From Candidatus Bathyarchaeia archaeon (GTDB taxonomy: Archaea > Thermoproteota > Bathyarchaeia > Bathyarchaeales > Bathycorpusculaceae), in contig JAVZLS010000020.1 of NCBI GenBank assembly GCA_038883715.1, positions 1 through 16,891 on the forward strand: a DNA stretch of 16,891 bases, written 5' to 3'. The notes beneath the pieces are model-generated. The model was given only the letters and a program-made list of their open reading frames with translations, did not search any database and was not told the DNA's origin. Every line of letters starts with the position of its first letter. The stretch's first letter is position 1. Of this stretch, positions 1 to 16,891 are shown in pieces. A program made the translations under genes and the position numbers.

Positions 1-117
1 TACAACGAGGCAAGAAAAATTGTGCCATTACGCCATGTTGGCGTTAGAAAGTCTAAGCTTCTGACGCAAGTGGCTCAAGTGCAAGTGCCACTGCAAAGGG
101 TTGAACAGCAAAGCTAG
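1..117 (+). CDS. rps3ae: 30S ribosomal protein S3Ae (eS1), 3' end only (partial)
   Basis: Not in the ORF track. Frame 1 reads YNEARKIVPLRHVGVRKSKLLTQVAQVQVPLQRVEQQS* (TAG 115-117), matching the archaeal eS1 C-terminal KIxPLRxVxIRKSK motif. Confidence 0.8.
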   Translation, partial: YNEARKIVPLRHVGVRKSKLLTQVAQVQVPLQRVEQQS

Positions 118-659: not shown

Positions 660-669
660 AACGCCTCAC

Positions 670-2660: not shown

Positions 2661-2939
2661 CTAACATCCATCCTTACATTGTTTTTCCCTAACGAAGATT
2701 GCGAAGTCTGGGCAAACTGCAGTGCAGAAACTACATAATATGCAGCTTTTTTCATCAACAACTCTTGGGGGGTGAACCCCTCTGGCATTAATTTCACTAG
2801 ATTCCTCTAAAACCTTTTTGGGGCAGTATTGGATGCAGAAGCCACACCCTTTACACTGGTCTTTTAATATGTGGATTTCAGCCTTTGGCCTCGAAACCTT
2901 CTCAATGTCTAGTGGGGTTCTCCAAAGCCTTTCAGGCAT
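2661..2939 (-). CDS. korD: 2-oxoacid:ferredoxin oxidoreductase delta subunit (2x[4Fe-4S] ferredoxin)
   Basis: CKGCGFCIQYCP and CILCSFCTAVCPDFAI; stop directly abuts the korA start. Confidence 0.9.
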   Translation of the reverse strand: MPERLWRTPLDIEKVSRPKAEIHILKDQCKGCGFCIQYCPKKVLEESSEINARGVHPPRVVDEKSCILCSFCTAVCPDFAIFVREKQCKDGC

Positions 2940-2940
2940 C

Positions 2941-5346
2941 CTAAGCTCCTCCAGCTTCTGAAAAAACTTTTTTGGCGTGTTCTATTTCCTCTAGGGTTAC
3001 ACTTTCCACAATTTTTTCCATTTCATAAATTTTTGAGGCAAATCTTTCTCCTTCGGCTGCTGAAACCCATAAAAGCTGAAGCCTCTCTTTGCGTAGACCG
3101 TTCTGTTCCATCTTCTTCCATAAGCGTTCCACACGTTTCTGAGTATGATAGTTGGCGTTAATGTAGTGGCAGTCTCCCGGATGGCAGCCAGCCACCAGAA
3201 CTGCGGCAGCGCCTCTTGCGAAGGCTCTTTCAACAAATTTTGGAGCAATCCTTCCCGAGCACATAGTTCTAATTATTCGAACTTTTGGCGGATACTGCAT
3301 CCTACTGACTCCGGCAAAATCTGCACCTGCATAAGCGCACCAATTGCAGCAGAAAGCGACAATTTTCTTGTCGGCATCATATTCTGTAACGGCGTCAATT
3401 TGAGCTATTATCTGCTCATCAGTGAAGTGGTTCTGGGTTAATGCATCGGATGGGCATTCTGCAGCGCATGTTCCGCATCCTCCACAAGCAGCCTCAACAA
3501 TTTCAACGCGTTTAAGCTCTTTGTTCAGAGTTATCGCGTTGTAAGGGCAAACCTTTGTGCAAAGCCCACAAGCCTTACATTTTTCCACATCCAAAATTGG
3601 CGTAATGGCCTCAACCGTAACTTTACCCTTAGCCATTAGTATGCCAGCTCTGGCTGCAGCTGCGCTGGCTTGTGTTACGCTGTCCTTTATGTCTTTTGGG
3701 GCTTCAGCGCACCCAGCGAAAAATATGCCTCCTGTGGCGGCATCCACTGGCCTAAGTTTTGGGTGAGCCTCCATGAAAAATCCGTCCTGCGTCCTCGAAA
3801 GAGTCAAAAGCCTCTGTATCACTTCGCTGTCTTTTCGCGGCTCAAGTCCGACAGATAGAATAACCATGTCAAAGTTCATTTTATAAGGCTCTTTCAAAAG
3901 CGTGTTTTCACCTATGAGCCAAAGGTTCTGAGTCCTTTTATCTTCAATTATTTCTGCCGGAAGCCCCCGGATGAATATTACGCCCTCCTTTTTAGCCCTC
4001 TTGTATAGGTCTTCAAAGCCCTTTCCATATGCACGAATATCAACGTAAAAGACGTAAATTTCAGTTTCAGGCCAGTGCTCCTTTATGAGGAGGCTGTCCT
4101 TTATGGTGTTCATGCAGCAAACATTGCTACAGTAAGTTCGTCCAGTCCTATTGGAGCGGGAGCCAACACATTGTATGAAAGCCACCCGCTTCGGAACTTT
4201 CATATCGCTAGGCCTAATCAGTCTTCCACCAGAAGGGCCGCCAGCATTAATCAACCTTTCAAATTCAAGCGATGTGATGACGTTTAGATATCTGCCATAA
4301 CCATATTGCGGCAGCGTTGAGGGATCGAAAACGTCTGCGCCTGTTGCCACTATAATTGTACCTACCTCTAACTCAACGGTTTCAGGTTTCATTGTAAAGT
4401 CTATGGCTTGCCTTTCGCAAGCCTTAATGCATTTGTCGCATACTATCACGCCATCTTTGTTTAGGCATAGGTTCATGTCAATTATGTAGGTAGATGGAAC
4501 CGCTTGTGCAAAAGGTGTATAAATGGCGTGTCTTAAGGCTAATCCGGCATCAAACTCGTTTGGCGATGTCATGGGACAAACTTTTGAGCATTCGCCGCAC
4601 GCTGAACAGTCTTCTTTTACATAACGCGGTTTCTTTAATACTTTTACTCGGAAGTTGCCGATGTAGCCCTTTACGTCGACAACTTCGCTGTTGGTTAATA
4701 GTTCAATGTTTGGATGACGCCCCACATCAGACATTTTTGGGGCGAGAATGCATATAGAGCAGTCCATTGTTGGAAAAGTTTTATCTATCCTTGCCATCAT
4801 CCCGCCGATGCTCGGCTCCCTCTCCACCAAATAAACCTTATAACCAGTGTCAGCAAGGTCTAATGCTGCTTGAATTCCTGCAACGCCGCCGCCAATTACA
4901 AGAGCCTTTCTTATAATTGGCACTTCAATTTCCTTGGCTGGCTTTAGTAAAGCCGCCTTAGCCACAGCCATTTTCACAAGGTCTTTGGCCTTTTCAATCG
5001 CCGCCTTCCTGTCATGGAGATGAACCCAACTGCACTGCTCACGAATGTTAGCCATCTCAAAAAGGTACTTGTTTAATCCAGCCTCTTCGCACACTTTTCG
5101 AAATGTGGGTTCGTGGAGGCGGGGAGAACACGAGGCAACGACCACACGGTTAAGCCTATACTCCTTAATATCATTTTTAATGAGCTCTTGCCCTTGGTCT
5201 GAGCATGTATAACGGTAATCCCTCGCCAAAACAACATGTGGAAGCTTGGAAGCGAACTCTGCGACATCTTTGCAATCGACAGAGCCCGCAATGTTCAGAC
5301 CGCAGTGGCAGACGTAAACCCCTATACGTATTTCTTCCTTCGCCAT
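2941..5346 (-). CDS. hdrA: Heterodisulfide reductase subunit A-like flavoprotein with C-terminal MvhD ([2Fe-2S]) fusion
   Basis: VYVCHCG, ASCSPRLHE, NIREQCSWVH, FAD motif IGGGVAG, KTFPTMDC, inserted ferredoxin, QCVGSR...CSNVCC, PKDI, C-terminal 2x[4Fe-4S], then the MvhD motifs FCCNWC, CSGR and GCHPGDCHY. Confidence 0.93.
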   Translation of the reverse strand: MAKEEIRIGVYVCHCGLNIAGSVDCKDVAEFASKLPHVVLARDYRYTCSDQGQELIKNDIKEYRLNRVVVASCSPRLHEPTFRKVCEEAGLNKYLFEMANIREQCSWVHLHDRKAAIEKAKDLVKMAVAKAALLKPAKEIEVPIIRKALVIGGGVAGIQAALDLADTGYKVYLVEREPSIGGMMARIDKTFPTMDCSICILAPKMSDVGRHPNIELLTNSEVVDVKGYIGNFRVKVLKKPRYVKEDCSACGECSKVCPMTSPNEFDAGLALRHAIYTPFAQAVPSTYIIDMNLCLNKDGVIVCDKCIKACERQAIDFTMKPETVELEVGTIIVATGADVFDPSTLPQYGYGRYLNVITSLEFERLINAGGPSGGRLIRPSDMKVPKRVAFIQCVGSRSNRTGRTYCSNVCCMNTIKDSLLIKEHWPETEIYVFYVDIRAYGKGFEDLYKRAKKEGVIFIRGLPAEIIEDKRTQNLWLIGENTLLKEPYKMNFDMVILSVGLEPRKDSEVIQRLLTLSRTQDGFFMEAHPKLRPVDAATGGIFFAGCAEAPKDIKDSVTQASAAAARAGILMAKGKVTVEAITPILDVEKCKACGLCTKVCPYNAITLNKELKRVEIVEAACGGCGTCAAECPSDALTQNHFTDEQIIAQIDAVTEYDADKKIVAFCCNWCAYAGADFAGVSRMQYPPKVRIIRTMCSGRIAPKFVERAFARGAAAVLVAGCHPGDCHYINANYHTQKRVERLWKKMEQNGLRKERLQLLWVSAAEGERFASKIYEMEKIVESVTLEEIEHAKKVFSEAGGA

Positions 5347-5353
5347 TTTCCAG

Positions 5354-6790
5354 TCACCTCAAACCCAAAGACTTTAGATAACGGTCAATCGAGACGGCGG
5401 CAATTTTCCCAGCACATACAGCCTCAATAATTGAAGCTGGACCGGTTACGACGTCTCCCCCTGCGAATACTCCTTGAAGGGTTGTTTCCATGGTTAATGG
5501 ATTAACCCAAATTGTTCCATCCTCGTTCAATTCAATCTCCTTGGGCAAAAAAGATAGGTCTGGGACTTCGCCTATCGCCAAAACCACCATGTCCGCGTCC
5601 TTAACAAATCCAGAGCCCTCAATAGGAATAGGCTTTCTCCTTCCGGTTTCATCTAACTCGCCTAACTTCATTCGGGCAAACTCAACACTGGAAACTTTTT
5701 TACCGTCGCCCAAAATTCTCTTCGGAGAAACCAAAAACTCAATTTTTACACCTTCACTTTCCGCTTCTTTAACTTCCCATGGATTTGCAGGCATCTCCTC
5801 CCTAGACCTTCGATAAAAAATAGTCACTTCTCCGGCTCCATATCTGAGAGCAGTTTTTGCGGAGTCAACAGCAATGTTCCCACCGCCAATAATGGCAACA
5901 CGCTTGCCACTAACATCCGGCGTCCTTCCAGAGTTAAACATCCAAAGAAAATCTAGAGCGTGCATTACCCCTTCCAAGTCGACCCCTTCAACCCTTAATT
6001 CTTGTCCTTTATGAGCGCCGGTGCCGATGAATATGGCATCATAGCCTTGTCTCTGCAAACCGTTGAAATCAACATCTCTACCAACCATAACACCAGTCTT
6101 CATTTCCACACCAAAGTCGTTCAACGCTTGTATGTCCGCGTCTAGAAACTCTCTTGGAAGTCGATAAGTGGGCAAACACTTTCTTAACATCCCACCAAGC
6201 TCTTTCATAGCCTCAAAAACGGTAACCTCATAGTTTTTCAAAGCTAATTCATATGCAACAGTAAGCCCCGCCGGCCCAGAACCTATGACTGCAACTTTCC
6301 CTTTCGCTGACTCTGCCCTAATTTCCCTCTTTTTCTCCTCCAGAATTTCCTTCCTTAACGATTCTGCCTCTTTTAGAACCTTCTCCAAGTCTAATCCTGC
6401 GCGTTCCGGATGGAAGCAAGCAAGAATTGTAACTAAGGGAAGGGGGGACACCTTAACAATTTTTCGAATAGCATTTTCAAATGATTGCTCATGTCCGGTT
6501 TTGACTGCAAACTTCCGAGTGTGAAGAAATATTTCTGGCGGTTTTAAGGCTTGGGGGCAACGCCTATAGCAACGGTAACACCAGGCGCAGAGCCAAATAT
6601 CATCCGAAACCAAAGCATTTTCGATGTTTAAGAAAATTTTTTCAAGGATATTCCTTGGGTTATACTCTCCTTTCAGAAGCTCCGCCATTGGACAGCTTGC
6701 GGTGCATATGCCACATTCGAAGCAGAACTTAATTTTTTCAGCGTCTGGGTATTCGGCGAGAACTTCCTTATAAGTTACAGTTTTTCCCAT
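5354..6790 (-). CDS. FAD/NAD(P)-dependent oxidoreductase (GltD/NfnB/SudA-like) with N-terminal HdrC-like 2x[4Fe-4S] domain
   Basis: N-terminal CFECGICTASCP...IWLCAWCYRCYRRCP; then VIGSGPAG, GGMLR..LPxYRLP, IGGGNIAVD, YRRSREEMPA and FAGGD. Confidence 0.85.
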   Translation of the reverse strand: MGKTVTYKEVLAEYPDAEKIKFCFECGICTASCPMAELLKGEYNPRNILEKIFLNIENALVSDDIWLCAWCYRCYRRCPQALKPPEIFLHTRKFAVKTGHEQSFENAIRKIVKVSPLPLVTILACFHPERAGLDLEKVLKEAESLRKEILEEKKREIRAESAKGKVAVIGSGPAGLTVAYELALKNYEVTVFEAMKELGGMLRKCLPTYRLPREFLDADIQALNDFGVEMKTGVMVGRDVDFNGLQRQGYDAIFIGTGAHKGQELRVEGVDLEGVMHALDFLWMFNSGRTPDVSGKRVAIIGGGNIAVDSAKTALRYGAGEVTIFYRRSREEMPANPWEVKEAESEGVKIEFLVSPKRILGDGKKVSSVEFARMKLGELDETGRRKPIPIEGSGFVKDADMVVLAIGEVPDLSFLPKEIELNEDGTIWVNPLTMETTLQGVFAGGDVVTGPASIIEAVCAGKIAAVSIDRYLKSLGLR

Positions 6791-6830
6791 GCTCAGCGTG
6801 ACCCGCCTTCCTATTATTGGAAAGGCTCAC

Positions 6831-6864
6831 AGATATAAACTTTACAAATGTAAAGTTTTAAATC
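6831..6864. promoter_or_regulatory. Back-to-back divergent BRE/TATA promoters
   Basis: Minus strand reads tgtaaagTTTATAT and plus strand reads tgtaaagTTTTAAAT. Together they form the inverted repeat AAACTTTACA-aa-TGTAAAGTTT (6837-6858). Confidence 0.65.
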
Positions 6865-6926
6865 ATAAGCCAAACTTCTTTTATAGATCCGACCGCCAAT
6901 AAACCATGAGACATGAGGAGCACTCT

Positions 6927-7952
6927 ATGGAAGAGGTTAAAGTTGTTTTATATGGGGTTGGCGCTGTCGGAAGTTTAATAGCAAGGGCTCTTCTCGAAAA
7001 GAAAGGCGTGAAAATAGTTGGCGCAATCGATGTTGCAAAGGATAAGGTAGGCAAGGATTTAGGCGAAATTTTAGGCTTGAACAGGGACCTTGGCATAACA
7101 GTTTCCAGCGACGTTGATACCACTCTCTCAAAAACAAAGCCGGACATCGCCATCCATGCCACATCATCCTACCTTAAAGACACCTACCCTCAAATAGCCT
7201 CCATAATTAAGCATGGTGTTAATGTTGTATCGACATGCGAAGAACTCTCGTACCCCTACTATTCAGAACCAAAAATCGCAAAGGAACTGGACAAGTTGGC
7301 CAAAAAACATGACGTGACAGTCTTAGGCACAGGAATAAACCCAGGCTTCCTAATGGACACTCTTGTGATAACACTGACAGCGGCATGTCAAAAAATAGAG
7401 AAAATCGAAGCCGTCAGAGTTATGAACGCTGCAACAAGACGTTTACCCTTCCAGAAAAAGATAGGCGCAGGCCTAACAGTAGAAGAATTTAAACAAAAAA
7501 TTGCGAAGGGAGAAATAACTGGACATGTGGGACTTGAGCAGTCCGTTGCGATGATTGCAGATGCACTGGCATGGGAACTTGATGAAATAAAGGCTGAACC
7601 CGTCGAACCAGTAATAGCCAAAGAACCAGTAGAAAGCGACTTTATAAGGGTTGAAACTGGAAAAGTTGCAGGTTCGAGGCAGACGGCGAAGGGAATAATG
7701 AAGGGCAAAGAGGTTATAGTTCTAGACTTTCAAGCCTATATCGGGGCGAAAGAAGAGTACGACGCCATAACGATCAGGGGCGTTCCAACAATCAAGCAGA
7801 AAATTCAGCCGTGCGTCCACGGGGACGCGGGCACAGTGGCAGTAATTGTAAACTCTATTCCAAAAGTGCTAAAGGCTCCGGCTGGCTTGCTGACCATGAA
7901 AGATTTGCCAGTTCCCTCGGCTGCTGTTGAGGATATGCGGAAATACTTATAA
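6927..7952 (+). CDS. NAD(P)-dependent amine dehydrogenase, 2,4-diaminopentanoate dehydrogenase (Ord)-like / DapB N-terminal family
   Basis: Rossmann GVGAVG, NVVSTCEEL, LGTGINPGFLMD, KIGAG, GHVG and GDxGTVA motifs. ATG 6927 follows GAGGAG (6915-6920) and is preferred over ATG 6906. Confidence 0.8.
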   Translation: MEEVKVVLYGVGAVGSLIARALLEKKGVKIVGAIDVAKDKVGKDLGEILGLNRDLGITVSSDVDTTLSKTKPDIAIHATSSYLKDTYPQIASIIKHGVNVVSTCEELSYPYYSEPKIAKELDKLAKKHDVTVLGTGINPGFLMDTLVITLTAACQKIEKIEAVRVMNAATRRLPFQKKIGAGLTVEEFKQKIAKGEITGHVGLEQSVAMIADALAWELDEIKAEPVEPVIAKEPVESDFIRVETGKVAGSRQTAKGIMKGKEVIVLDFQAYIGAKEEYDAITIRGVPTIKQKIQPCVHGDAGTVAVIVNSIPKVLKAPAGLLTMKDLPVPSAAVEDMRKYL

Positions 7953-7957
7953 TTTTA

Positions 7958-8752
7958 ATGCTTTTAGGAAGTGTTGGTTTGAGGTTTCTGGTTGATATAA
8001 ACTGTGATTTAGGCGAAAGCTATGGGGCATTCAGGATTGGGAATGACGAGGAAATAATGCCCTACATAACTTCTGCTAATGTTGCGTGTGGCTTTCACGC
8101 GGGCGACCCTTTAACAATGGCGCAAACGGTGGCCTTAACAAAAAAGTATGGAGTCGCCGTGGGGGCTCATCCTGGATACCCAGACCTTATGGGGTTTGGA
8201 AGAAGAGAAATGCAACTATCAGGCGAAGAGGCAAAAAACTATATCATTTACCAAGTTGGAGCGCTTCTCGGATTCGTCAAAGTTTTCGGCTTAAGTCTTC
8301 AACATGTAAAGCCCCACGGCGCGATGTATAATACAGCCTTAAAGAATAGAGAACTTTCCAGGGCTATAGCTGAAGCTGTCGCAGAGCTAGATGAGAACTT
8401 AATTGTTTTCGCACCGCCGAAATCCACAATGGCTGAGGTGGCTGCCAACGCTGGATTACGGGTTGCCTACGAATTTTTTGCGGACAGAGCCTATAACCCG
8501 GATGGAAGCCTAGTTTCAAGGAGGAAACCCGGCGCTGTAATTGGGGAGCCGGAAAAAGTTGTTAAGCGAGCCATACAAGCCGTAAAGGAAGGCGTAGTTG
8601 AAGCTTTTAGCGGCGAAGTCGTGGAGCTTGGACAAGTTCACACAATTTGTGTTCATGGCGACACGCCAAGAGCCGTAAAATTGGCTGAAGCATTAAGAAA
8701 AGGGCTTGTTAAAGCTGGAATAGATGTTAAACCAGTAAGCCAATTCATCTAA
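7958..8752 (+). CDS. pxpA: 5-oxoprolinase subunit A (LamB/YcsF family)
   Basis: DINCDLGES, ANVACGFHAGD, GAHPGYPDLxGFGRR, HVKPHGAMYN, FADRAY and TICVHGD. The true start may be TTG 7979. Confidence 0.93.
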   Translation: MLLGSVGLRFLVDINCDLGESYGAFRIGNDEEIMPYITSANVACGFHAGDPLTMAQTVALTKKYGVAVGAHPGYPDLMGFGRREMQLSGEEAKNYIIYQVGALLGFVKVFGLSLQHVKPHGAMYNTALKNRELSRAIAEAVAELDENLIVFAPPKSTMAEVAANAGLRVAYEFFADRAYNPDGSLVSRRKPGAVIGEPEKVVKRAIQAVKEGVVEAFSGEVVELGQVHTICVHGDTPRAVKLAEALRKGLVKAGIDVKPVSQFI

Positions 8753-9501
8753 TGATGCCCATGAAAAGCTTGGTTTACCCTTCTGCACGTTATCTTCCCT
8801 TTGGCGACCATGCTTTAATAGTTGAGTTTGGCGATGTAATTGATTTAGGGGTGAACAGCAAGGTCATCGCCTTACATGAGGCTCTTTTAAAAGCTGACAT
8901 AAAAGGCGTTGAAGAGTTTGTCCCCACTTATAGGTCTCTGCTTGTTCGTTATAATCCAGCTGAAATAACTTACGATCAACTTGTTGTACGCGTTAAAGAA
9001 ATTGAAAAGGCATTGAAAGATAAACCAGCAGAAATAGGGTGGAGGAAGCTTATTGTTCCAGTAGTTTACGGGGGTGCTTATGGACCAGACTTGGGTTATG
9101 TGGCTCAGTATCACGGGTTAACCGAGGAACAAGTTGTCAAGCACCATTCAGGGAAAGATTATAGGGTTTATATGATAGGCTTTGTTGCCGGCTTCCCATA
9201 CTTAGGTGACGTTCCAGAAGAAATTGCAACACCACGTCTTGAAACTCCACGTCTAAAAGTGCCAGCTGGTTCTGTTGGCATTGCAGAAAGACAGACAGGC
9301 ATTTATCCATGCGAGGCTCCCGGGGGATGGCGGATAATAGGCAGAACGCCAATTAAACTTTTTGATCCGCAAAAGCAGCCTCCAGCCTTACTAAAACCTG
9401 GAGATACTGTTAAATTTGAGCCGGTTTCGGAGGAGGATTACAAGAGAATTGAGGAACTTGTTAAGGTAGGCGCTTACAAGCTTCAATTTGAGGAACTGTA
9501 G
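8752..9501 (+). CDS. pxpB: 5-oxoprolinase subunit B (KipI / allophanate hydrolase subunit 1-like)
   Basis: GDxALIVEF, VPTYRSLLV, PVVYGGxYGPDL, GFVAGFPYLG, PRLKVPAGSVGIA and PGGWRIIGRTP; start overlaps the pxpA stop. Confidence 0.92.
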   Translation: MMPMKSLVYPSARYLPFGDHALIVEFGDVIDLGVNSKVIALHEALLKADIKGVEEFVPTYRSLLVRYNPAEITYDQLVVRVKEIEKALKDKPAEIGWRKLIVPVVYGGAYGPDLGYVAQYHGLTEEQVVKHHSGKDYRVYMIGFVAGFPYLGDVPEEIATPRLETPRLKVPAGSVGIAERQTGIYPCEAPGGWRIIGRTPIKLFDPQKQPPALLKPGDTVKFEPVSEEDYKRIEELVKVGAYKLQFEEL

Positions 9502-9502
9502 G

Positions 9503-10453
9503 ATGAAAGTTTTTCAAGTGTTAAAGCCCGGATTCTTTACAACAGTGCAAGACTTGGGTAGATATGGCTACCTTAAATATGGAGTTCCGATTTCTGGTGC
9601 TATGGACTCGTTTTCGATGATTGTGGCAAATTTGCTTGTTGGAAACAACCCTAATGATGCATGTTTGGAGATAACCCTCATAGGACCAGAACTTCAAGCG
9701 TTGGCAGATACTCAAATTGCCTTAACTGGAGGGAAAATTTCGGTGGAAATCAATGGTGAGGAAGCGTCCATGTGGCAAACATTAACTGTACGTAAAGGAG
9801 ACGTTGTTTCTGTTAGGAAAGTGGAAAGCGGGTGCAGATGTTACCTCTCCATTAGGGGAGGAATAAACACGCCCATAGTTCTTGGGAGCAGGTCAACTTA
9901 TGTCCGCGGACGCTTCGGTGGAATAGATGGCAGACAACTAAAGTTTGGGGACATAATTGAGGGGTTCAGTGTTCCGCCTATAGATGTTGTTTTTAGAATG
10001 CTAGAAAACCTCGTGCCGCACTTTGGGGATAGTTTCACGGTGCATGTTGTTTTGGGACCGCAAGCAGACATGTTCACTGAAGGAGGCATTGAAACTTTCC
10101 TTTCAAACCCTTATAGGGTTACAATAGATTCTGACCGCATGGGCTACCGCCTCGAAGGACCAGCAATACAGCATAAGGGGAAGGCTGACATAGTCTCGGA
10201 CGCCCTCCTGCCTGGGGCAGTTCAAGTACCCAGGGATGGAAAACCCATCATTATCATGAGGGATGCCCAAACAACCGGGGGCTATCCCAAAATAGCAGCT
10301 GTAATAACTCCAGATTTGGATAGACTTGGGCAAGCCAAGCCAAATGACATCATAAGGTTCTCGGAGATTACGCTAGAAGATGCCCGTAAAAGGCTTTTAG
10401 AGTATCGAGAAATGCTCGCTGGTTTGGCTGAAAAGTTAATTAGAATTTCTTAA
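9503..10453 (+). CDS. pxpC: 5-oxoprolinase subunit C (KipA / allophanate hydrolase subunit 2-like)
   Basis: TTVQDLGRxG, GAMD, ANLLVGN, LGSRST, SDRMGYRL, GAVQVP and DAQTTGGYPKI. ATG 9503 lies just after the pxpB stop and is preferred over TTG 9488. Confidence 0.92.
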   Translation: MKVFQVLKPGFFTTVQDLGRYGYLKYGVPISGAMDSFSMIVANLLVGNNPNDACLEITLIGPELQALADTQIALTGGKISVEINGEEASMWQTLTVRKGDVVSVRKVESGCRCYLSIRGGINTPIVLGSRSTYVRGRFGGIDGRQLKFGDIIEGFSVPPIDVVFRMLENLVPHFGDSFTVHVVLGPQADMFTEGGIETFLSNPYRVTIDSDRMGYRLEGPAIQHKGKADIVSDALLPGAVQVPRDGKPIIIMRDAQTTGGYPKIAAVITPDLDRLGQAKPNDIIRFSEITLEDARKRLLEYREMLAGLAEKLIRIS

Positions 10454-10494
10454 CCTTTAAATCGGCTTTCGCCGCTTTAGTGCATGGTGTTTCA

Positions 10495-10950
10495 ATGCCA
10501 TCCAGATGTATTCATGAGAAAGGCACCCTATCAATTGGAGAATTAATTGAAAGAGTTAAAGGAAATCCGAATTTTCAGAAGGCTGGAGCTATTGCCGTCT
10601 TTATTGGCGTTGTTCGTGGAGAGAATCCTAGGGAAGAAAAAGTTCAGAGATTGGAAATTGAAGCTTATGATGAGGGAGCAGATGAGGTGCTGTCGAAGAT
10701 ATGCCAAGACTTAAAAAGTAGAAGGGGCATAGTTGATGTTCAAATACACCATTTTTTGGGCAAGTTTGATGTTGGCGAGGACCTTGTTTATGTCGTGGTT
10801 GCCGGCTCTCACAGAGAGGATGTTTTTCCAGTTTTAAGGGAGGCTGTTGAGAGGTATAAGAAGGAAGCCCCAATCTTCAAGAAGGAGTATGTGACCACTA
10901 AAGAGGGCTTGGAGAAGGCTTATTGGGTTGCTGAAGCTGAAGAAGGATAG
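10495..10950 (+). CDS. moaE: Molybdopterin synthase catalytic subunit MoaE
   Basis: GAIAVFIGVVR, LEIEAY, HFLGxFxVGE, AGSHREDVF and KKEAPIFKKE...W. The start is either ATG 10495 (after GGTG) or GTG 10480. Confidence 0.88.
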   Translation: MPSRCIHEKGTLSIGELIERVKGNPNFQKAGAIAVFIGVVRGENPREEKVQRLEIEAYDEGADEVLSKICQDLKSRRGIVDVQIHHFLGKFDVGEDLVYVVVAGSHREDVFPVLREAVERYKKEAPIFKKEYVTTKEGLEKAYWVAEAEEG

Positions 10951-11014
10951 CTATGTTTTTGCAAAGTGTTATTAAGCATTTCATAGAAGCTTATTGTAAG
11001 GAGATGAGTTCGGC

Positions 11015-11683
11015 TTGGAAAAGAAAAGCTATGCATGGTTTGAGAGGCGGAGAAGGACAAAGGCTCTTGATTTGGCACAGGAGCAGATAACAAAGGCTTT
11101 GGACACCGTTACGCTTCTTCATTATGCTATGCAGAAAATGGCTGAAGGCAACAGGAAAGAAGCCATGCAGCACATAGAAAACATTTTCAAGGTTGAGAAG
11201 GAAGTTGACAGACTGCGAACAGAAGTCTTCAAGGAGCTTTCAAAAGGCGTGGCTCTTTTTGCAGATTACCGTGAAGACCTAATGCACCTTGTGAAGAGGC
11301 TTGACACTCTGGCCGACCATGTGAAGGACGCGGCAAGATGCATAAAGATGCTTGAAGGAGCCAAAGTTCCTAAGGAGCTTTGGGAGAACACAGCCCACAC
11401 AACATCGTTTCTTGTGGATTGCGCCCACGCCTTAAGAGGTAGCATCGAGAAAATTGCCGTGGACTCTTCTGAGGCTATAAGTGGAGCAAAAAAGGTGGAG
11501 GAAATAGAGAGGAAAATAGACGACGAGTATCTTAAAACCAAAGCCTTATTCATCAAATATGGAGGGCAGATGGATAGCGGCTCAATGGTTATTTTTGATG
11601 ATCTTGTGGAGTTTATTGAGCATGCTGCTGACATGTGCGCTGATACGGCTGACTACATAGTTATACTTGCTAGCAGAGAATAG
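11015..11683 (+). CDS. DUF47 / PhoU-like phosphate transport regulator family protein
   Basis: All-helical protein with two repeated ExxxD motifs (EKEVDRLR, ERKIDDEY), plus REDLMHLVKRLDTLAD and IEHAADMCAD; TTG start. Confidence 0.82.
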   Translation: MEKKSYAWFERRRRTKALDLAQEQITKALDTVTLLHYAMQKMAEGNRKEAMQHIENIFKVEKEVDRLRTEVFKELSKGVALFADYREDLMHLVKRLDTLADHVKDAARCIKMLEGAKVPKELWENTAHTTSFLVDCAHALRGSIEKIAVDSSEAISGAKKVEEIERKIDDEYLKTKALFIKYGGQMDSGSMVIFDDLVEFIEHAADMCADTADYIVILASRE

Positions 11684-11696
11684 CCAGCAGCCCATA

Positions 11697-11981
11697 CTAT
11701 TTTGTTTCTTCTTCTTGTTTTGATATTAAATTGCCTAGGGCGTAGGCCGCGGCTGAAACTATGATTATGCCGAAGAAGCCCGCTGCTAAAGTTGATAAGT
11801 ATGGGTTATCAATTGCTGGTAAAGTGTAGTCTGGCATAAGCCCTTTCCAAACGGGTTCCACCTCTTCCACTTTAAGGGTTTCAGCCACTGTTTCTAGGCC
11901 GTCTGGGTAGGATGAGGCGAAGGGTATTAGGATTGCAAGCCCAACGGCTATTAGGATTAGCGCCTTAACGTAGCCTTTCAA
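11697..11981 (-). CDS. nikN: PDGLE-domain membrane protein (NikN-like ECF accessory component)
   Basis: ASSYPDGLE and LMPDY motifs flanked by two hydrophobic helices. The likely TTG start at 11981 overlaps the nikM TGA (TTGA), giving 94 aa. Confidence 0.8.
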   Translation of the reverse strand: MKGYVKALILIAVGLAILIPFASSYPDGLETVAETLKVEEVEPVWKGLMPDYTLPAIDNPYLSTLAAGFFGIIIVSAAAYALGNLISKQEEETK

Positions 11982-12640
11982 ATGGCTTCCCTCTTTAGGA
12001 AAGCTAAACCATTCAGCACCGCGGGTTGCACTCGGTACAGTTGTGTTATGGCTGTTGTTGTTATTGCTGCTTCGCCGAGGCCTATTAGTACATGCCAAAA
12101 TAGCATGGCTGGGACTGTTACTGTTATTCCACCAACTTCTGTGAAGGCTGGTGAAAATCCTATCTGCAGACCGCATGCCAAAGCCCCAAGAACAACTGAT
12201 AGCCATGAAGCTGCGAACACGCCTATGAAGAAGCGTTTGCCTTTGGTTGAGTTTCCGGCTATGAGTTTAATTATGTAGAAGCTTAGGCCGCCTATAACTG
12301 CCATGTTGAAGATGTTGGCGCCTAGGGTTATGATTCCGCCGTCTGCGAAGAACAGTGCTTGCATTAGTAGGACTATTGTCATGCTTAGGATTGCCGCATA
12401 GGGGCCTAAAACTATTGAGAGGAATGTTCCGCCTACTAGGTGTCCGCTTGTTCCATATGTTATTGGGAAGTTAATCATTTGGGCGGCGAAGACGAAGGCG
12501 CTTGAAACCGCCAGTAGTGGGGCTAATGCTTTTGGGTATGTGGCTTTCGCTTTTTTCCATGACAAAACGAGGAATATAATGGATATTGCAGCCATTGTGG
12601 CGGCGATTTCTGGGCTTATGTAGCCGTCTGGTATGTGCAT
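11978..12640 (-). CDS. nikM: ECF-type nickel/cobalt transporter S component (NikM/CbiM family)
   Basis: N-terminal metal-binding MHIPDG, FAAQMINFP, GTSGH, QALFFADGG..LGAN and HVLIGLGEA; multiple TM helices. MHIPDG plus a PDGLE partner favours NikM over CbiM (MHIMEG). Confidence 0.88.
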   Translation of the reverse strand: MHIPDGYISPEIAATMAAISIIFLVLSWKKAKATYPKALAPLLAVSSAFVFAAQMINFPITYGTSGHLVGGTFLSIVLGPYAAILSMTIVLLMQALFFADGGIITLGANIFNMAVIGGLSFYIIKLIAGNSTKGKRFFIGVFAASWLSVVLGALACGLQIGFSPAFTEVGGITVTVPAMLFWHVLIGLGEAAITTTAITQLYRVQPAVLNGLAFLKREAI

Positions 12641-12653
12641 TAGATTAGCCTCG

Positions 12654-12681
12654 GTATTACTTTTTACTTGAAGAGTATTAC
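12654..12681. promoter_or_regulatory. Putative NikR operator
   Basis: GTATTA-N16-TATTAC upstream of nikM, with the same architecture as the E. coli NikR site GTATGA-N16-TCATAC. Confidence 0.65.
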
Positions 12682-12696
12682 TTATAAACTTTGCCG
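12681..12696 (-). promoter_or_regulatory. BRE/TATA promoter of nikMN
   Basis: Minus strand reads cggcaaag-TTTATAAG, about 41 nt upstream of the nikM ATG. Confidence 0.65.
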
Positions 12697-12718
12697 TTAA
12701 AATGCGGAAAACTGAAGA

Positions 12719-12991
12719 TTAGGAGAGTAGTTCTGTTAGGATTTTGTTTAGCTGTTCTTTGTCTTTTACTTTTTTGAAGACGGCTTTGCCTGTTGCGTAT
12801 AAGCGTATGTAAGTTTCTTTGTATGTTAAGTCGAAGATTATTTTTGCTGTGGTTTTTTGCAATACGGCTTTTTTCAGTATTTTTGTTATTGCCTCCTCTT
12901 TTTTGTCGAATTTAAAGTGGATTATGTAGTCTCTTTCTTCTCCGCATGCCTCTTCAATTCTTGCTATGTATGTGTCCAGAATTGTGCTCAT
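12719..12991 (-). CDS. Hypothetical 90-aa protein, last gene of the Fe-S operon
   Basis: ATG overlaps the sufS stop (ATGA, 12988-12991) with GGAG upstream; protein-like composition; single Cys (EACG). Confidence 0.75.
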   Translation of the reverse strand: MSTILDTYIARIEEACGEERDYIIHFKFDKKEEAITKILKKAVLQKTTAKIIFDLTYKETYIRLYATGKAVFKKVKDKEQLNKILTELLS

Positions 12992-14226
12992 AGGGATTTT
13001 TCAATCTCCTTTAGGGCTTCCACTAGCTTGTCGATTTCCTCTTCGGTGTTGTATATGTAGAAGCTTGCCCTTGCCGAGGATTTTAGTCCGAATCTCTGGT
13101 GGAGTGGTTGGGCGCAGTGGAAGCCGCTTCTTATCATTATGCCATAAGCGTCTAAGAGCAATGCCAAGTCGTGGGAGTCGAAGCCTTCAAGGTTGAAGGG
13201 CACTATGCCACATTTGGCTTTCACATCCTTTGGACCGTAAACCTTGACCTTTTCGCATTCTTGTAAGCGTTTTATGGCGTACTCGGTTAGGGCGCATTCA
13301 TGGGCTTTAACGTTTTCCATTCCTAGGTTTTTTAGGTATTTTATGGCTGCCATTAAGCCTACGCCACCGCATATGTTTGGTGTTCCAGCCTCAAATTTCC
13401 ATGGCAGGTCGTTCCAGGTTATTTTGCAAGTTTGTGTTTTTGGGTTGTAGGAGACTTCCCTTATCATTTCGCCTCCTCCATGGAAGGGCTCCATTTTTTC
13501 TAGGATGTCTCGCTTGCCGTATAGGACGCCTATTCCCGTTGGTCCAAGCATTTTATGTCCGGAAAAGGCTAGGAAGTCGCAGTCCAATTCTTTCACATTT
13601 ATTGGTATGTGGGGTACTGATTGGGCTCCGTCGACGAGAATGAGGGCGTTGTTTTCGTGGGCGAGTTTTGCGGCATATCGCACATTATTTATCACGCCGG
13701 TAACATTTGAGACATGGGTTATGCAGACAATTTTCACTTTTGGTGAAAGGGCTTCTTGGAAGGCTTGTTGGTTTAAGGTTCCATCTTCGTTGACGTCTAT
13801 GTATCGTACCTTGAAGCCCTTTATTTTTGAGAGGATTTCCCATGGCACAATGTTGCTGTGGTGCTCCATTAGGGTTACTAGAACCTCGTCGTCTCGTTTG
13901 AGGTTTCGCAGTCCCCAGGAGTAGGCGACAGTGTTTATGGCTTCTGTTGTCCCCCTTGTGAAGATTATTTCTTCTATGCTTTCTGCGCCTATGAATTTGG
14001 CTGTTTCTTCGTGGGCGCTTTCATAAAGCTCTGTAGCCTCAAGTGAAAGCGTATGCACGGCTCTGTGGACATTGGCATTGTGGAGTTCATAGTACTCTTT
14101 TATGGCTTCTATTACTTGTTTTGGTTTTTGGGACGTGGCAGCGTTATCAAAATAGATAAGCGGGTGATTGTTTATTTTCCGTTTTAAAATTGGAAAGTCT
14201 TCCCTAATCTTGTATGGGTCGAACAT
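12988..14226 (-). CDS. sufS: Cysteine desulfurase, group II (SufS type)
   Basis: YFDNAATSQKP, NVHR, GTTEAIN, MEHHSN, DGAQ, SGHKMLGP, FEAGTP, RSGFHCAQPL and RASFY; all catalytic motifs look intact. Confidence 0.93.
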   Translation of the reverse strand: MFDPYKIREDFPILKRKINNHPLIYFDNAATSQKPKQVIEAIKEYYELHNANVHRAVHTLSLEATELYESAHEETAKFIGAESIEEIIFTRGTTEAINTVAYSWGLRNLKRDDEVLVTLMEHHSNIVPWEILSKIKGFKVRYIDVNEDGTLNQQAFQEALSPKVKIVCITHVSNVTGVINNVRYAAKLAHENNALILVDGAQSVPHIPINVKELDCDFLAFSGHKMLGPTGIGVLYGKRDILEKMEPFHGGGEMIREVSYNPKTQTCKITWNDLPWKFEAGTPNICGGVGLMAAIKYLKNLGMENVKAHECALTEYAIKRLQECEKVKVYGPKDVKAKCGIVPFNLEGFDSHDLALLLDAYGIMIRSGFHCAQPLHQRFGLKSSARASFYIYNTEEEIDKLVEALKEIEKSL

Positions 14227-14726
14227 TATTTTTCCTCTGCCATCTTCATCTTTTTCTCAAGGATTCTCGCCAACTCTTCCTCTTCTAGGGCTTGTTTTTC
14301 TTCAAAGGTTAGTTCATTTGGAAGCCATTCCGGCATGGTCTGTTTGTTTTTGTAGTAGGCTCTTATGGCGCGTCTTAGGGCTCCTACGGCTAGGATTCCG
14401 CAGTGGAATTTCACCGCTGGCAATCCGCCAACCTCTTCTGCCACGCTTTTCCACGTTATTTTCCATGCATCTTCGAGTTTCATTCCCTTCACCTTCTCTG
14501 TTACTATGCTGGATGTGGCTATGTTGGCAGCGCATCCGTAGCTTTCAAAAGTTGCCTTTTCGATTATGTCTTGCTCGTTTATTTTTAGGTAGAAGGTTAT
14601 CATGTCTCCGCATTGGGGGTTTCCAGCAACAGCCGACACCGTAGCGTCTTCCATTCTCCCAAGGTTTTTGGGGTTTCTGAAAAGCTCGAGAATTTTTTGG
14701 CTGTAGGGCAGGGGTGCACGCGACAT
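14226..14726 (-). CDS. iscU: Fe-S cluster scaffold, IscU/NifU-N type, with C-terminal extension
   Basis: NPKNLG, GNPQCGD, FESYGCAA and LPAVKFHC. Cys2-Cys3 spacing is 44 aa, so there is no SufU-type insertion. Confidence 0.9.
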   Translation of the reverse strand: MSRAPLPYSQKILELFRNPKNLGRMEDATVSAVAGNPQCGDMITFYLKINEQDIIEKATFESYGCAANIATSSIVTEKVKGMKLEDAWKITWKSVAEEVGGLPAVKFHCGILAVGALRRAIRAYYKNKQTMPEWLPNELTFEEKQALEEEELARILEKKMKMAEEK

Positions 14727-14727
14727 T

Positions 14728-15951
14728 TTATCCCACCACTGTTGTGCCAGTTATCCCCCTAAGCCTTTCAACGGCTTTTGGAAACACTTCCAAAACATAG
14801 TCTATATCCTCTTCAGTATGGTAACGGGTAACCTTCATAAGGATGCTTCCATGGGCTTCCTCAAATTTTCTGCCTATTGCTGTCAGGACGTGGCTTGGCT
14901 GTAGTAGGCGCCTTGTGCATGCGCTCCCGCTTGAGACGTAAACACCGTTTAGGCTTAGTTCGATCGTTAGTGCTTCGCCTTCACAGCGCAAAAAGCTTAT
15001 GTTGGCATTATCTGGAGCCCTTTTCTCGCCCCTTGGACCATTTAAGCGTACATCGGTTATTTTTTCAAAAATTCCGCTTATGAGCTTGTCCCTAAGCCTT
15101 CGCATGTGCCTAACATTTTCTTCAAAGTTTTGGAAGGCAAGCTCAGAGGCTTTTGTAAAGCCAACTATTAATGGCGTGTTCTCAACTCCAGGCCAGAGTT
15201 TTTGGGTGCCTATTTGGCCTTCCAATATTCTTTCTATGTTTATGCCTTCCCTTACGTAGAGGGCTCCTATTCCGCGAGGTCCAAGGATTTTGTAGCTGCT
15301 TATTGTTGTCATGTCCACGCCCAAGTCCTGCACGTTGAACTGTATTTTTCCATAGGCGTCTGAAGCGTCTGTATGGAATATTGCGTTTGGGTTTTTGTCC
15401 TTGACTATTTCTCGGGCTTCCCTTATTGGTTGTATTGTTCCTATTTCATGGTTTACGGCGGAAAGGCTTACTAGAACGGTTTCGTCATCAACAGCTTCCT
15501 TCAATTTTTCAAGGTTTACAAGACCCTCGCCGTCAACTGGAATTTTTGTTACCGTGAAGCCGAAACGGGTTAACATTTCAGCCACATGCATAATGCTCAA
15601 CGGCTCAACTTCAGAAATTACAATCTTCTTCCCCTTCCCCCGCATCTGAAGGGTCGCACCCAGCAAGGCAAGGTTGTTGGCTTCTGTTTCACCAGGCGTA
15701 AAATTAACTTCCTCAAGATTTTTGCATCCCATAAAGCCGGCTATCTTTTGGGCTGATTCCATTATGGCTTCAAAGGCTTCCCATCCAGGCTTATGGGTAA
15801 GCGTTGGATTGCCATAGGCGCGCTGGTTAAAGTATGGAAGCATAGCTTCAACAACTTCTGTTGGCACCATGCTTGAGTTTTCAATGTCCAGATAGACTTC
15901 ACGCTTTAATCCCTCATGAGCCTTTAATAGTTCGCGGACATTTTCCACCAT
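14728..15951 (-). CDS. IscS/NifS-like (group I cysteine desulfurase family) protein with degenerate active site
   Basis: YLD, YGNP, TEANN, EIGTIQP, KxxGPxG and the group I loop SSGSACT...PSHVL; several conserved PLP- and substrate-binding residues are substituted (see findings). Confidence 0.88.
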   Translation of the reverse strand: MVENVRELLKAHEGLKREVYLDIENSSMVPTEVVEAMLPYFNQRAYGNPTLTHKPGWEAFEAIMESAQKIAGFMGCKNLEEVNFTPGETEANNLALLGATLQMRGKGKKIVISEVEPLSIMHVAEMLTRFGFTVTKIPVDGEGLVNLEKLKEAVDDETVLVSLSAVNHEIGTIQPIREAREIVKDKNPNAIFHTDASDAYGKIQFNVQDLGVDMTTISSYKILGPRGIGALYVREGINIERILEGQIGTQKLWPGVENTPLIVGFTKASELAFQNFEENVRHMRRLRDKLISGIFEKITDVRLNGPRGEKRAPDNANISFLRCEGEALTIELSLNGVYVSSGSACTRRLLQPSHVLTAIGRKFEEAHGSILMKVTRYHTEEDIDYVLEVFPKAVERLRGITGTTVVG

Positions 15952-16310
15952 AAACTTTCAAGTCCGTTTGGCTTATCAACTCCTATTAGGTTTGAGCTTA
16001 TAGAAAAAGCTATTTGACGCCGTTAAACGCCTAAACGTCATATTTGTGGCTGGTTCCAAACAACAAATACACTACCCCTCTCTACATTTTTTGGCTTGAA
16101 AAACAACCAATAGCGCCCCTCTCTCTATAGATTTCCGCAACTAAACAGCAAACATCAAATTTACCTGTTAGAAAACACCTAAATTAGATACCCTCTAGAG
16201 AAATTTGAGCACGAACAAAGGAAGACCTTATTAGGCTAGTTTTACAGTTATTTAGTGAGCTTTGCTGGCTTGTTGAGCGGGCAGTGTGAAGGCTGCTTTC
16301 TTACTTGTTA

Positions 16311-16346
16311 GTAAAGTTTAACATAAAAACTGAATGTTGGAGGTGA
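16311..16346 (+). promoter_or_regulatory. BRE/TATA-like element and Shine-Dalgarno for the 96-aa ORF
   Basis: gtaaagTTTAACAT (same BRE-like gtaaag as at 6850) and GGAGGTGA at 16339-16346, ending 7 nt before ATG 16354. Confidence 0.55.
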
Positions 16347-16353
16347 AAAGTGT

Positions 16354-16644
16354 ATGAAGTATATAGGATTTTGGAAGGTTGTTGGAGGCGACGTTATGGA
16401 TGTCATTGAAAAGTTTAGGAAAATGACAGCTGAAAGGGAAAAGGGAAACGAAGAGTTTGCTAAACTGATTTTTGGTCCTTTCCAGTTCACTGGCGAGAGC
16501 AAGGGCTTCACTTTGTTTGAGACAGACGACTCAGAGACGCTTAAAAACATTGCAAACTTCTACTCGCCTGAAATCAAGTGGAAGTTCTTCTCCATAAACG
16601 ACCCAACAAAAGCAGCGGATTTATACAAGACCTTGAGGAAATAG
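16354..16644 (+). CDS. Small protein, DUF3303/GYD-like dimeric alpha-beta barrel family (tentative)
   Basis: Strong SD; the pattern MKYIGFW...KLIFGP...GESKGFTLFETDD resembles DUF3303-type proteins. The family call is from memory. Confidence 0.65.
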   Translation: MKYIGFWKVVGGDVMDVIEKFRKMTAEREKGNEEFAKLIFGPFQFTGESKGFTLFETDDSETLKNIANFYSPEIKWKFFSINDPTKAADLYKTLRK

Positions 16645-16653
16645 TCTCAAACG

Positions 16654-16687
16654 TATTTCTCTTTATTTTTCAAAATTTCTGTTTTTC
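16654..16687 (+). terminator. Putative archaeal oligo-T terminator
   Basis: T-rich tract tatttctctttatttttcaaaatttctgtttttca starting about 10 nt after the stop codon. Confidence 0.45.
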
Positions 16688-16749
16688 AATAACGTTTTAA
16701 ACAGCTTTCGTTCTCTAGTTTGCAATAGGGAAGAAAAAGGCGCGTTCAA

Positions 16750-16891
16750 GTGAGGATAACAGATCTCCCAATTCCAGAGTCGGTTAAAGAAGTTCTACTT
16801 AAGTCTGGAATTGTTGAGCTTTATCCACCGCAGAAAGAAGCCATAAAGGCTGGCGCCTTAGAGGGGCGAAACCTTGTCTTGGCTAGTCCAA
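16750..16891 (+). CDS. hel308: Ski2-like DEAD/DEAH-box helicase Hel308 (Hjm), 5' end only (partial)
   Basis: Not in the ORF track. GTG 16750 gives MRITDLPIPESVKEVLLKSGIVELYPPQKEAIKAGALEGRNLVLASP, containing the Q-motif LYPPQ and running into the start of Walker A at the window edge. Confidence 0.85.
   Translation, partial: MRITDLPIPESVKEVLLKSGIVELYPPQKEAIKAGALEGRNLVLASP

Follow-up and report, generated by a model that had tools for sequence, protein, structure and literature searches.

An IscS-like protein with a remodelled active site, probably no longer a desulfurase, encoded beside IscU and an intact SufS in Bathyarchaeia

Inactive IscS proteins have so far been represented by one solved case, that of Archaeoglobus fulgidus, and one suspected case, IscS1 of Methanosarcina acetivorans. 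The available excerpts of the papers concerned describe A. fulgidus IscS as inactive, its Cys serving as a ligand of the [2Fe-2S] cluster on IscU (PMC8918507, PMC13066941, PMC7585200). The protein binds pyridoxamine 5'-phosphate (PMP) without the Lys, and the source of the sulfur for clusters in systems with an inactive IscS is given there as an open question (PMC8918507). M. acetivorans IscS1, which is uncharacterised, has lost residues that bind pyridoxal 5'-phosphate (PLP), including the Lys, is paired with an enlarged IscU1 (24 kDa) and lies in a cluster with additional genes that have no assigned function; its authors propose that it acts like A. fulgidus IscS (excerpts of PMC7585200). 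A further relative is the minimal archaeal IscS-IscU (MIS) system, MisS-MisU (Garcia et al., 2022, as reported in excerpts of citing papers), a two-gene module of an IscS-like and an IscU-like protein that does without the chaperones or carriers found in bacterial isc operons and is described with an active cysteine desulfurase. Here we describe P0001, an IscS-like protein encoded in a stretch of 16,891 nucleotides (the window) that makes up contig JAVZLS010000020.1, positions 1 to 16,891, of a Candidatus Bathyarchaeia archaeon (assembly GCA_038883715.1). Bathyarchaeia are an abundant uncultured archaeal group. By alignment, the PLP and substrate pocket of P0001 is remodelled, and desulfurase activity has probably been lost. 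The position of this IscS copy beside IscU and an intact SufS suggests an unusual hybrid iron-sulfur (Fe-S) cluster machine.

P0001 shares with A. fulgidus IscS (4hvk, 4eb5, 4r5f) the pairing with IscU, the retained loop Cys, the change of Arg354 to Leu and the loss of Gln183, and the role proposed for the A. fulgidus protein, that of scaffold partner and Cys ligand, is also the one that we propose for P0001. (Replaced residues are numbered as in the E. coli K-12 IscS record, on whose own sequence the textbook numbering was verified.) However, A. fulgidus IscS has lost the Schiff-base Lys (Asp199) and carries H205N while keeping His104, Asn155 and an Arg-Ser-Gly-Ser loop, whereas P0001 keeps the Lys, has lost His104, His205, Asn155 and Thr243, and has gained Glu24, Glu88 and Asp198 in its own numbering. 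The two proteins belong to separate clades. The P0001 type also adds N-terminal helices on both partners, and SufS and a 90-residue protein, orf90, in the operon; none of the five A. fulgidus-like loci of Bathyarchaeia that have an IscU open reading frame (ORF; L040-L043, L050) showed these helices, SufS or orf90. M. acetivorans IscS1, likened to P0001 by its published description and not by sequence, differs in the loss of the Lys. Compared with the MIS system as described, a probable pseudoenzyme here takes the place of MisS, and a type-II SufS has been added. The operon SufS is closest to Bacillus subtilis SufS and, like it, adjoins a U-type protein. This protein, in contrast to B. subtilis SufU, is IscU-like, with His108 before Cys109 and no SufU insertion, and no SufBCD was found in the genome.

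The relationship of P0001 to type-I cysteine desulfurases is evident from its length and fold. The Pfam family Aminotran_5 (PF00266) covers it end to end (profile positions 1-371 of 371, 3e-59). Its scores with the functional (equivalog) profiles are low: 381 bits with NifS TIGR03402 (cut-off 530.75), 310 bits with IscS TIGR02006 (cut-off 643) and 313 bits with NF010611 (cut-off 548), and all other NCBIfam desulfurase equivalogs are likewise far under their cut-offs. The closest sequence in the PDB is A. fulgidus IscS (4r5f, 4eb5; about 1e-92). Chains of 406 residues deposited as 'cysteine desulfurase' (9wer, 9wep, 9wew and relatives) match P0001 about equally well (about 3e-92) and have canonical active-site motifs. 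An AlphaFold2 model built on a 46-row alignment reached a predicted local distance difference test score (pLDDT) of 91.6 and a predicted template modelling (TM) score of 0.90; its low-confidence parts are the Cys loop 344-347 (pLDDT below 50), loop 241-260 and the last three residues. The top fold match is A. fulgidus IscS 4hvk (TM score 0.95, root-mean-square deviation 1.7 A), and the A. fulgidus structures as a group give 0.94-0.95 and 1.7-1.8 A at 40-41% identity, followed by human NFS1, E. coli IscS and a T. maritima NifS-like protein. TM scores to IscS and NifS structures range from 0.86 to 0.96.

The active site of P0001 differs from that of E. coli IscS at many catalytic positions. In E. 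coli IscS, according to the excerpts available of PMC9978102, His104 stacks on PLP, Gln183 and Asp180 form hydrogen bonds to the phenolate oxygen and N1, respectively, Arg354 holds the cysteine carboxylate, and His104, Lys105, Asn155, Glu156, Tyr337 and Arg354 line the pocket; H104Q, Q183E, K206A, C328S and Asp180 variants are inactive and R354K is active. His104, Gln183 and Arg354 are all present in 93 canonical sequences, a group defined by those residues. In P0001 all three are replaced, as listed with their coordinates in Table 1, where conservation refers to 200 unique sequences of at least 60% identity to P0001, a set defined by identity only. Around them, Ser10-Ala11 have become Glu-Asn, followed by T12S (Ser26). 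The motif TSGATE of the phosphate-binding loop has become TPGETE through S73P (Pro86) and the gain of Glu88, and D79N (Asn92) and K105L (Leu118) have been added. His205 is Tyr, and R240W, S241P and T243V together turn RSGT into WPGV. Tyr337 is His354 in 200/200 sequences. Residues kept, besides the Schiff-base Lys, the N1-binding Asp and the loop Cys, are Thr89 (Thr76 of E. coli IscS), which stands beside Glu88 and is Thr in 195/200, Ser218 (Ser203; 198/200) and Glu169 (Glu156). We take Thr76, Ser203, His205 and Thr243 of E. coli IscS to be its phosphate contacts, and the loop at Trp253-Val256 is presumably the one that carries the cross-subunit phosphate ligand.

The charge of the pocket has changed as well: three basic residues have gone (K105, R240 and R354), three acidic ones have come in (E24, E88 and D198), and D79 is Asn. 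As read from the alignment, the pocket is thus switched from basic to acidic. A shifted alignment register was considered and rejected, the columns being identical in MAFFT alignments of 11, 43, 271 and 353 sequences; there is no shift because Lys206, Asp180, Ser203 and Cys328 all remain in place. The initial annotation of this DNA, made from its letters, had described an intact IscS homologue of 407 residues with these motif changes, and it holds up well at this level. The ORF is as described, the five codons it named (P117, D198, K221, C345 and L371) are exact, alignment to E. coli IscS reproduces every substitution it gave (EP, DASD, SSYK, TPGETE, LDIENSS, WPGV and SILMK), and the Schiff-base Lys (K221), the PLP-N1 Asp (D195) and the loop Cys (C345) are retained as it stated. 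It had missed N155H, K105L, Y337H and D79N.

The remodelled residues are close to fixed. In the set of 200, the replacement residues occur in 195-200 sequences, the exception being H168 (185), and 124 of the 407 columns show a single residue in at least 99% of the sequences. When the 120 nearest homologues are compared (82-100% identity, with the query counted among them), 101 have an identical pattern at 16 positions and the other 19 are off at one. The pattern, in these comparisons, is far beyond chance. Selection was gauged from median pairwise Nei-Gojobori ratios of nonsynonymous to synonymous substitution (dN/dS) over pairs with dS of 0.05-1.5. The ratio was 0.079 for the IscS-like gene (95 sequences, 571 pairs), 0.063 for IscU (102 sequences, 390 pairs), 0.083 for SufS (64 sequences, 238 pairs) and 0.134 for orf90 (67 sequences, 346 pairs); with dS near 1 these values are rough, yet far below 1. 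The reading frame of the IscS-like gene is intact in 95 full-length DNA copies, and in the sample examined this type of IscS is conserved with synteny across seven families of the class Bathyarchaeia. A pseudogene or relaxed selection is rejected by a ratio so similar to those of the neighbours; since the changes are near-fixed in 200 sequences and the ratio is about 0.08, as in the neighbouring genes, they are not decay. Separately, the six-frame search showed one TAA within the IscS-like match of one genome (G029, C5:25245-26456, L030) and one in-frame TAG in the SufS match of another (G082, C9:31916-33133). These may be real breaks, alignment overruns past a stop or assembly errors.

Table 1. 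Features of the P0001 operon, with positions in the window (conservation counts are out of the 200 sequences defined in the text)
Feature	Position	Strand	Remarks
P0001, IscS/MisS-like, 407 aa	14728..15951	(-)	intact ORF; type-I cysteine-desulfurase (IscS/NifS) fold
N-terminal helix, residues 1-15, invariant His12	15907..15951	(-)	clade-specific; columns gapped in canonical IscS
Glu24-Asn25 (replace Ser10-Ala11)	15877..15882	(-)	each in 199/200
Glu88 (replaces Ala75, phosphate-binding GAT loop)	15688..15690	(-)	E in 200/200
Pro117 (replaces His104, PLP-stacking, acid-base)	15601..15603	(-)	codon CCG; P in 198/200
His168 (replaces Asn155)	15448..15450	(-)	H 185, N 12, P 3 of 200
Asp195-Ala-Ser-Asp198	15358..15369	(-)	PLP-N1 Asp180 kept (D195 196/200); Q183D (D198 199/200; codon at 15358-15360)
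Tyr220-Lys221	15289..15294	(-)	H205Y (Y 195/200); Schiff-base Lys206 kept (K 200/200; codon at 15289-15291)
Trp253-Pro-Gly-Val256 (replace Arg240-Ser-Gly-Thr243)	15184..15195	(-)	W 200/200; V or I 200/200
Cys345 in SSGSACT (= catalytic loop Cys328)	14917..14919	(-)	C in 200/200; flexible loop
Leu371 (replaces substrate-carboxylate Arg354)	14839..14841	(-)	L in 200/200
IscU/MisU scaffold, 166 aa (P0271)	14226..14726	(-)	NifU_N 7.6e-39
SufS, canonical type-II cysteine desulfurase, 412 aa	12988..14226	(-)	TIGR01979 594 bits, cut-off 475
orf90 (P0272), 90 aa, invariant Cys16-Gly17	12719..12991	(-)	family-less; AlphaFold2 pLDDT 90.6

Bathyarchaeia contain at least five forms of IscS, as seen in a six-frame search of 121 genomes followed by extraction of the loci. 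Form A, the query type (65-100% identity to P0001), was examined at 22 loci, with Pro at position 104 in 22/22, Tyr at 205 in 20/22 and Lys at 206 in 22/22. Form A' (50-54% identity, 9 loci) has E10, N11, N155H, Q183D, R240W, T243V/I/L and R354L in common with A and keeps H104 and H205. Form B (41-46%, 7 loci: L040-L043, L048, L050, L051) is A. fulgidus-like, with N205-D206, Q183A/V and R354L/M/A. Form C (45-47%, 2 loci, L044 and L047) has H104N, N155D and Q183A, keeps K206 and R354, and lies beside SufS. Two further loci (41-45%) are canonical or near-canonical, L049 fully so and L046 with Q183T. In some genomes, G086, G077, G072 and G066 among them, a query-type copy and an A. fulgidus-like copy occur together, each paired with a separate IscU.

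In a FastTree of 196 sequences, for which group A was thinned to 42 representatives of less than 85% mutual identity, A forms a clade (support 0.996), as do A and A' together (0.982); the group labels on the tree are residue-defined, and clade supports are what we rely on. The nearest relatives of A and A' are other atypical sequences including C (0.997), and B is placed elsewhere. A place for P0001 in the A. fulgidus-like clade is rejected by the residue patterns and the tree: its motif is SSYK, not SSND with the Lys replaced. In a library of representatives at 50% identity, clusters of its own kind lie at 57-77% identity to the query and are followed by a drop to 47% or less, so the query-type family is discrete. 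The forms suggest a stepwise loss in the series C to A' to A, in an order taken from an unrooted analysis; however, only C and A were found beside SufS, which is a counterpoint to this series.

These comparisons bear on the larger claims of the initial annotation. Its candidate pseudo-desulfurase gains support from the inactivity of single His104 and Gln183 mutants of E. coli IscS (in the excerpts of PMC9978102), the absence of Arg354 and the low equivalog scores. The suggestion of a route other than that of A. fulgidus IscS agrees with the retained Lys206 and with a clade of its own (0.996) apart from the A. fulgidus-like SND-type copies, which Bathyarchaeia also have. Its view that the changes are targeted and not decay is borne out by the dN/dS of 0.079, against 0.083 for SufS and 0.063 for IscU, and the substitutions, far from being unique to this genome, are nearly fixed across the 200 sequences. 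The complex with IscU, which it had proposed to model, scored 0.62 against 0.00 for the controls, as detailed below. What it had not seen is the context, a canonical SufS and a conserved 90-residue Cys protein in the same operon.

Co-folding of P0001 with IscU, from separate alignments, gave a score of 0.62 (runs of 0.62, 0.63 and 0.59), and the best of three controls gave 0.00. The mark used is reached by 58/80 solved complexes and by 2/110 mismatched pairs. At least 62% of contacts are common to the runs, with partner pLDDT of at least 82. The predicted interface comprises residues 322-334, 344-346, 353, 363-367 and 400-404 of P0001 and 37-44, 61-66 and 103-106 of IscU, and residues 344-346, in the Cys loop, face the IscU cysteines. 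The predicted contacts with IscU further include N25 and L118, which lie at the edge of the former active site. In E. coli the interface consists of the IscS helix 309-316, Glu347 and helix 379-391, and of Gly38-Lys42, Lys59-Gly64 and Lys103 of IscU (excerpts of PMC2854127); the predicted interface corresponds to it. The co-fold also predicts contacts between residues 1-11 of P0001 and residues 1-13 of IscU. The N-terminal columns of P0001 are conserved in clades A and A' and are modelled as a helix (2-11) that is predicted to touch the N-terminal extension of IscU. Since both extensions are absent from the solved complexes, these contacts are not explained by model memory.

The four genes lie on the minus strand in the order IscS-like, IscU, SufS, orf90 and are tightly packed, with one base between the first two (TAA-A-ATG) and overlapping junctions of TAATG (IscU/SufS) and ATGA (SufS/orf90). 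In IscU, Cys39, Asp41, Cys65, His108 and Cys109 are invariant in 35 sequences. Only the partners of the A and A' forms are extended, at the N terminus by MSRxPLPY and at the C terminus by an acidic stretch of about 35 residues (PxWLPxExTxEEKxALEEEELA), the latter lying outside the confident predicted interface with P0001. Assignment of this protein as SufU was rejected on the score with TIGR01994 (65.9, cut-off 92.5), the invariant His108-Cys109 and the lack of the SufU insertion. The closest solved relative of SufS is that of B. subtilis (2.9e-141), with its His, Lys, Cys and Arg motifs aligned. In orf90, which was aligned across 35 sequences and ends in Leu-Leu, no Pfam or NCBIfam family was recognised, and its model had no match in the PDB with E below 0.1 (Foldseek). 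In the Atlas it falls into Bathyarchaeota clusters of its own and is weakly like TBP-like domains and C-terminal parts of the ThiF family (TM score 0.62-0.67). It was found only at A loci, and no orf90-like ORF was present downstream of IscU at 8 A' and 3 C or near-canonical loci. The protein is a candidate new factor in Fe-S biogenesis or sulfur relay.

The linkage of these genes is widespread. IscU follows the IscS-like gene at 29/30 genome loci, the 30th being cut. SufS is inside the locus at 20/22 A loci and 0/8 A' loci, and at A loci it takes three placements: downstream of IscU, on the upstream side of the IscS-like gene, or past orf90 in divergent orientation. Among 80 metagenome loci, the IscS-like gene is followed by IscU in 74, and 56 show the full order IscS-like, IscU, SufS, orf90 on one strand. 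The rest comprise 12 lacking an orf90 hit only, 6 with the IscS-like gene and IscU, 3 with the IscS-like gene only and 3 without a called IscS-like ORF, the shorter loci being counted without an individual check for contig ends. HscAB, IscA and Fdx are absent from the operon layout; the search for HscAB and IscA was not extended to the rest of the genome.

No Fe-S assembly system other than this operon was found in the genome (1.33 Mb, 90.3% complete, 2% contaminated). This follows from family searches of the genome that turned up no SufB/D, no SufE and no SufC above the cut-off of 213 bits (the top-scoring generic ABC ATPase reaches 85), and no second IscU, the single NifU_N gene being that of the operon. 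P0001 is the sole IscS-type gene found in it. Other class-V proteins in the genome are an aminotransferase and a distant SufS-like protein of 379 residues (L003:35-1171 (+), contig C41; 150 bits against 475). Across the class, SufB/D is present in 40/121 genomes; among the form-A genomes it is present in 8/22 and was not found in 14/22, one of these 14 being rated 100% complete. SufS, at E of 1e-60 or less, is present in 72/121 genomes, in 21/22 with form A and in 2/9 with form A'. Such counts are descriptive only, because the genomes are related.

The reading that we consider most probable, if by no means assured, is that P0001 is a non-catalytic MisS/IscS to which IscU docks and which contributes Cys345, with SufS as the supplier of sulfur. 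P0001 would have arisen from a type-I cysteine desulfurase and would be the IscS or MisS of a minimal archaeal IscS-IscU system. It would have retained the fold and its dimer-type architecture, the surface on which IscU docks and Cys345 on its long flexible loop, and it would have lost the residues stacking on PLP, binding its phenolate and phosphate and holding the cysteine carboxylate. As a structural partner it would hold IscU and position Cys345 where the cluster is assembled; there this residue may be the fourth cluster ligand, as in A. fulgidus IscS, or relay a persulfide. The intact type-II SufS encoded in the operon would mobilise the sulfur; its B. subtilis-like features suggest direct loading of the U-type protein, and orf90 would be an accessory. 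We infer the loss of activity, the binding of IscU, the ligand or relay role and the donor role of SufS from these relationships; for Cys345 the grounds are its invariance, the synteny with IscU and the co-fold.

Several observations weigh against this reading. Lys221, Asp195, Ser218 and Thr89, four PLP contacts, are kept, and thus the cofactor may still bind. The near-invariance of the replacement residues suggests that the pocket has come under a new constraint and was not simply lost, and the non-catalytic role does not explain it. Form A' shares R354L, Q183D and T243V and is mostly without SufS (2/9 genomes), so that SufS is no universal partner of degenerate copies. The solved IscS-IscU complexes (4eb5, 3lvl) imply that the passing co-fold may partly reflect likeness to them. 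Finally, a genome that is 90% complete leaves room for unseen SufBC.

One alternative keeps P0001 non-catalytic but puts it in the path of the sulfur: it could be a dedicated acceptor for SufS, an analogue of SufE or SufU, whose Cys345 persulfide is passed to bound IscU. We regard this as unlikely, although far from negligible. Cys345 is invariant and sits on a flexible loop, its neighbourhood (344-346) is predicted by the co-fold to face the cysteines of IscU, the genome yielded no SufE, and SufS is linked to the IscS-like gene in three gene orders. However, SufS is closest to the B. subtilis enzyme, which uses a U-type partner, and the His aligned with the Zn-swapping His342 appears conserved (a hand count with an uncertain chain offset). 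Because SufS is B. subtilis-like and the equivalent of His342 is apparently kept, IscU itself may be the SufS acceptor. In addition, orf90, with its invariant Cys16, is another candidate.

Alternatively, in line with the switched substrate that the initial annotation also considered, P0001 might still be a PLP or PMP enzyme with a changed chemistry or substrate, for instance a substrate without a free alpha-carboxylate such as carrier- or protein-bound cysteine or persulfide, the cofactor being held by Lys221, Asp195, Ser218, Thr89 and Tyr220. This alternative stays on the list because Lys221 is invariant (200/200), and Asp195, Ser218 and Thr89 are each found in at least 195/200 sequences. E24, N25, E88, D198, Y220 and H354 are fixed and not drifting, A' keeps His104 and His205, and A. 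fulgidus IscS still binds PMP (excerpts of PMC8918507). We nevertheless find it rather improbable. The stacking His is Pro in 198/200, Thr243 has become Val or Ile and Arg354 Leu, and Q183D and the Glu of the GAT loop put acidic groups at the phenolate and the phosphate. In E. coli IscS, H104Q or Q183E alone abolishes activity (excerpts of PMC9978102). A complete SufS is also encoded in the same operon.

A more speculative proposal, which we hold to be more doubtful still, starts from the charge of the pocket. With K105, R240 and R354 gone and Glu24, Glu88, Asp198, His168 and His354 standing beside Asp195 and Lys221, the old PLP pocket might have been rebuilt as a cation site, for example for ferrous iron destined for IscU, or as a clamp for the conserved N-terminal Ser-Arg tail of IscU. 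Together with SufS and orf90 it would then form a self-sufficient hybrid MIS-SUF machine, the sole Fe-S system of these archaea and a living intermediate between MisU and SufU. That the IscS-like gene is a functionless duplicate in decay or under relaxed selection, as the many lost catalytic residues and the enzymatic redundancy of P0001 next to an intact SufS might suggest, can be dismissed in view of its dN/dS, which is that of its neighbours (0.079), a frame intact in 95 DNA copies, 124/407 columns with one residue in at least 99% of sequences, synteny across seven families and its standing as the only IscS-type gene in the genome.

The loss of the PLP site in form A is independent of that in A. 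fulgidus, more radical, and fixed across seven Bathyarchaeia families. If P0001 is indeed a non-catalytic partner of IscU, the locus would offer a model in which a type-II desulfurase feeds an IscU-type scaffold, a pseudo-desulfurase is kept for its docking surface and mobile cysteine, and redundancy within one operon gives rise to a pseudoenzyme. We did not find in print a Lys-retaining, His-less form of IscS, its fixation in seven families of the sample, the operon with SufS and orf90, or its standing as the one Fe-S system detected in several genomes, although Garcia et al. (2022) may bear on this. Our literature search found no paper that joins Bathyarchaeia, cysteine desulfurase and IscU, and that study or its supplements may list degenerate MisS proteins; the term 'pseudoenzyme' did not occur among the listed matches on cysteine desulfurases.

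Several studies of hot-spring metagenomes contain DNA nearly identical to window positions 12719-15951, with word shares of 0.23-0.90. In two RNA-seq libraries from sediment, contigs match the P0001 gene in part (15382-15831 and 14828-15051) and orf90 in part (12735-12904) at 98-100% identity; RNA libraries can contain DNA, and these contigs are therefore a weak hint of expression only. Nothing follows from the stretches that they leave uncovered. Two runs labelled 'metatranscriptomic WGS' (whole-genome shotgun) that have matches are probably DNA. Just downstream of the operon lies a CbiM gene (11978-12640 (-)). Elsewhere the window encodes Fe-S-rich enzymes: the flanks at 114-6790 (-) and 6906-10453 (+) carry genes for pyruvate:ferredoxin oxidoreductase subunits, an Fe-S flavoprotein and an HdrA-like protein of 801 residues fused to an MvhD/FlpD domain, together with a 2,4-diaminopentanoate dehydrogenase-like protein and a trio of LamB/YcsF and carboxyltransferase (5-oxoprolinase-like) genes.

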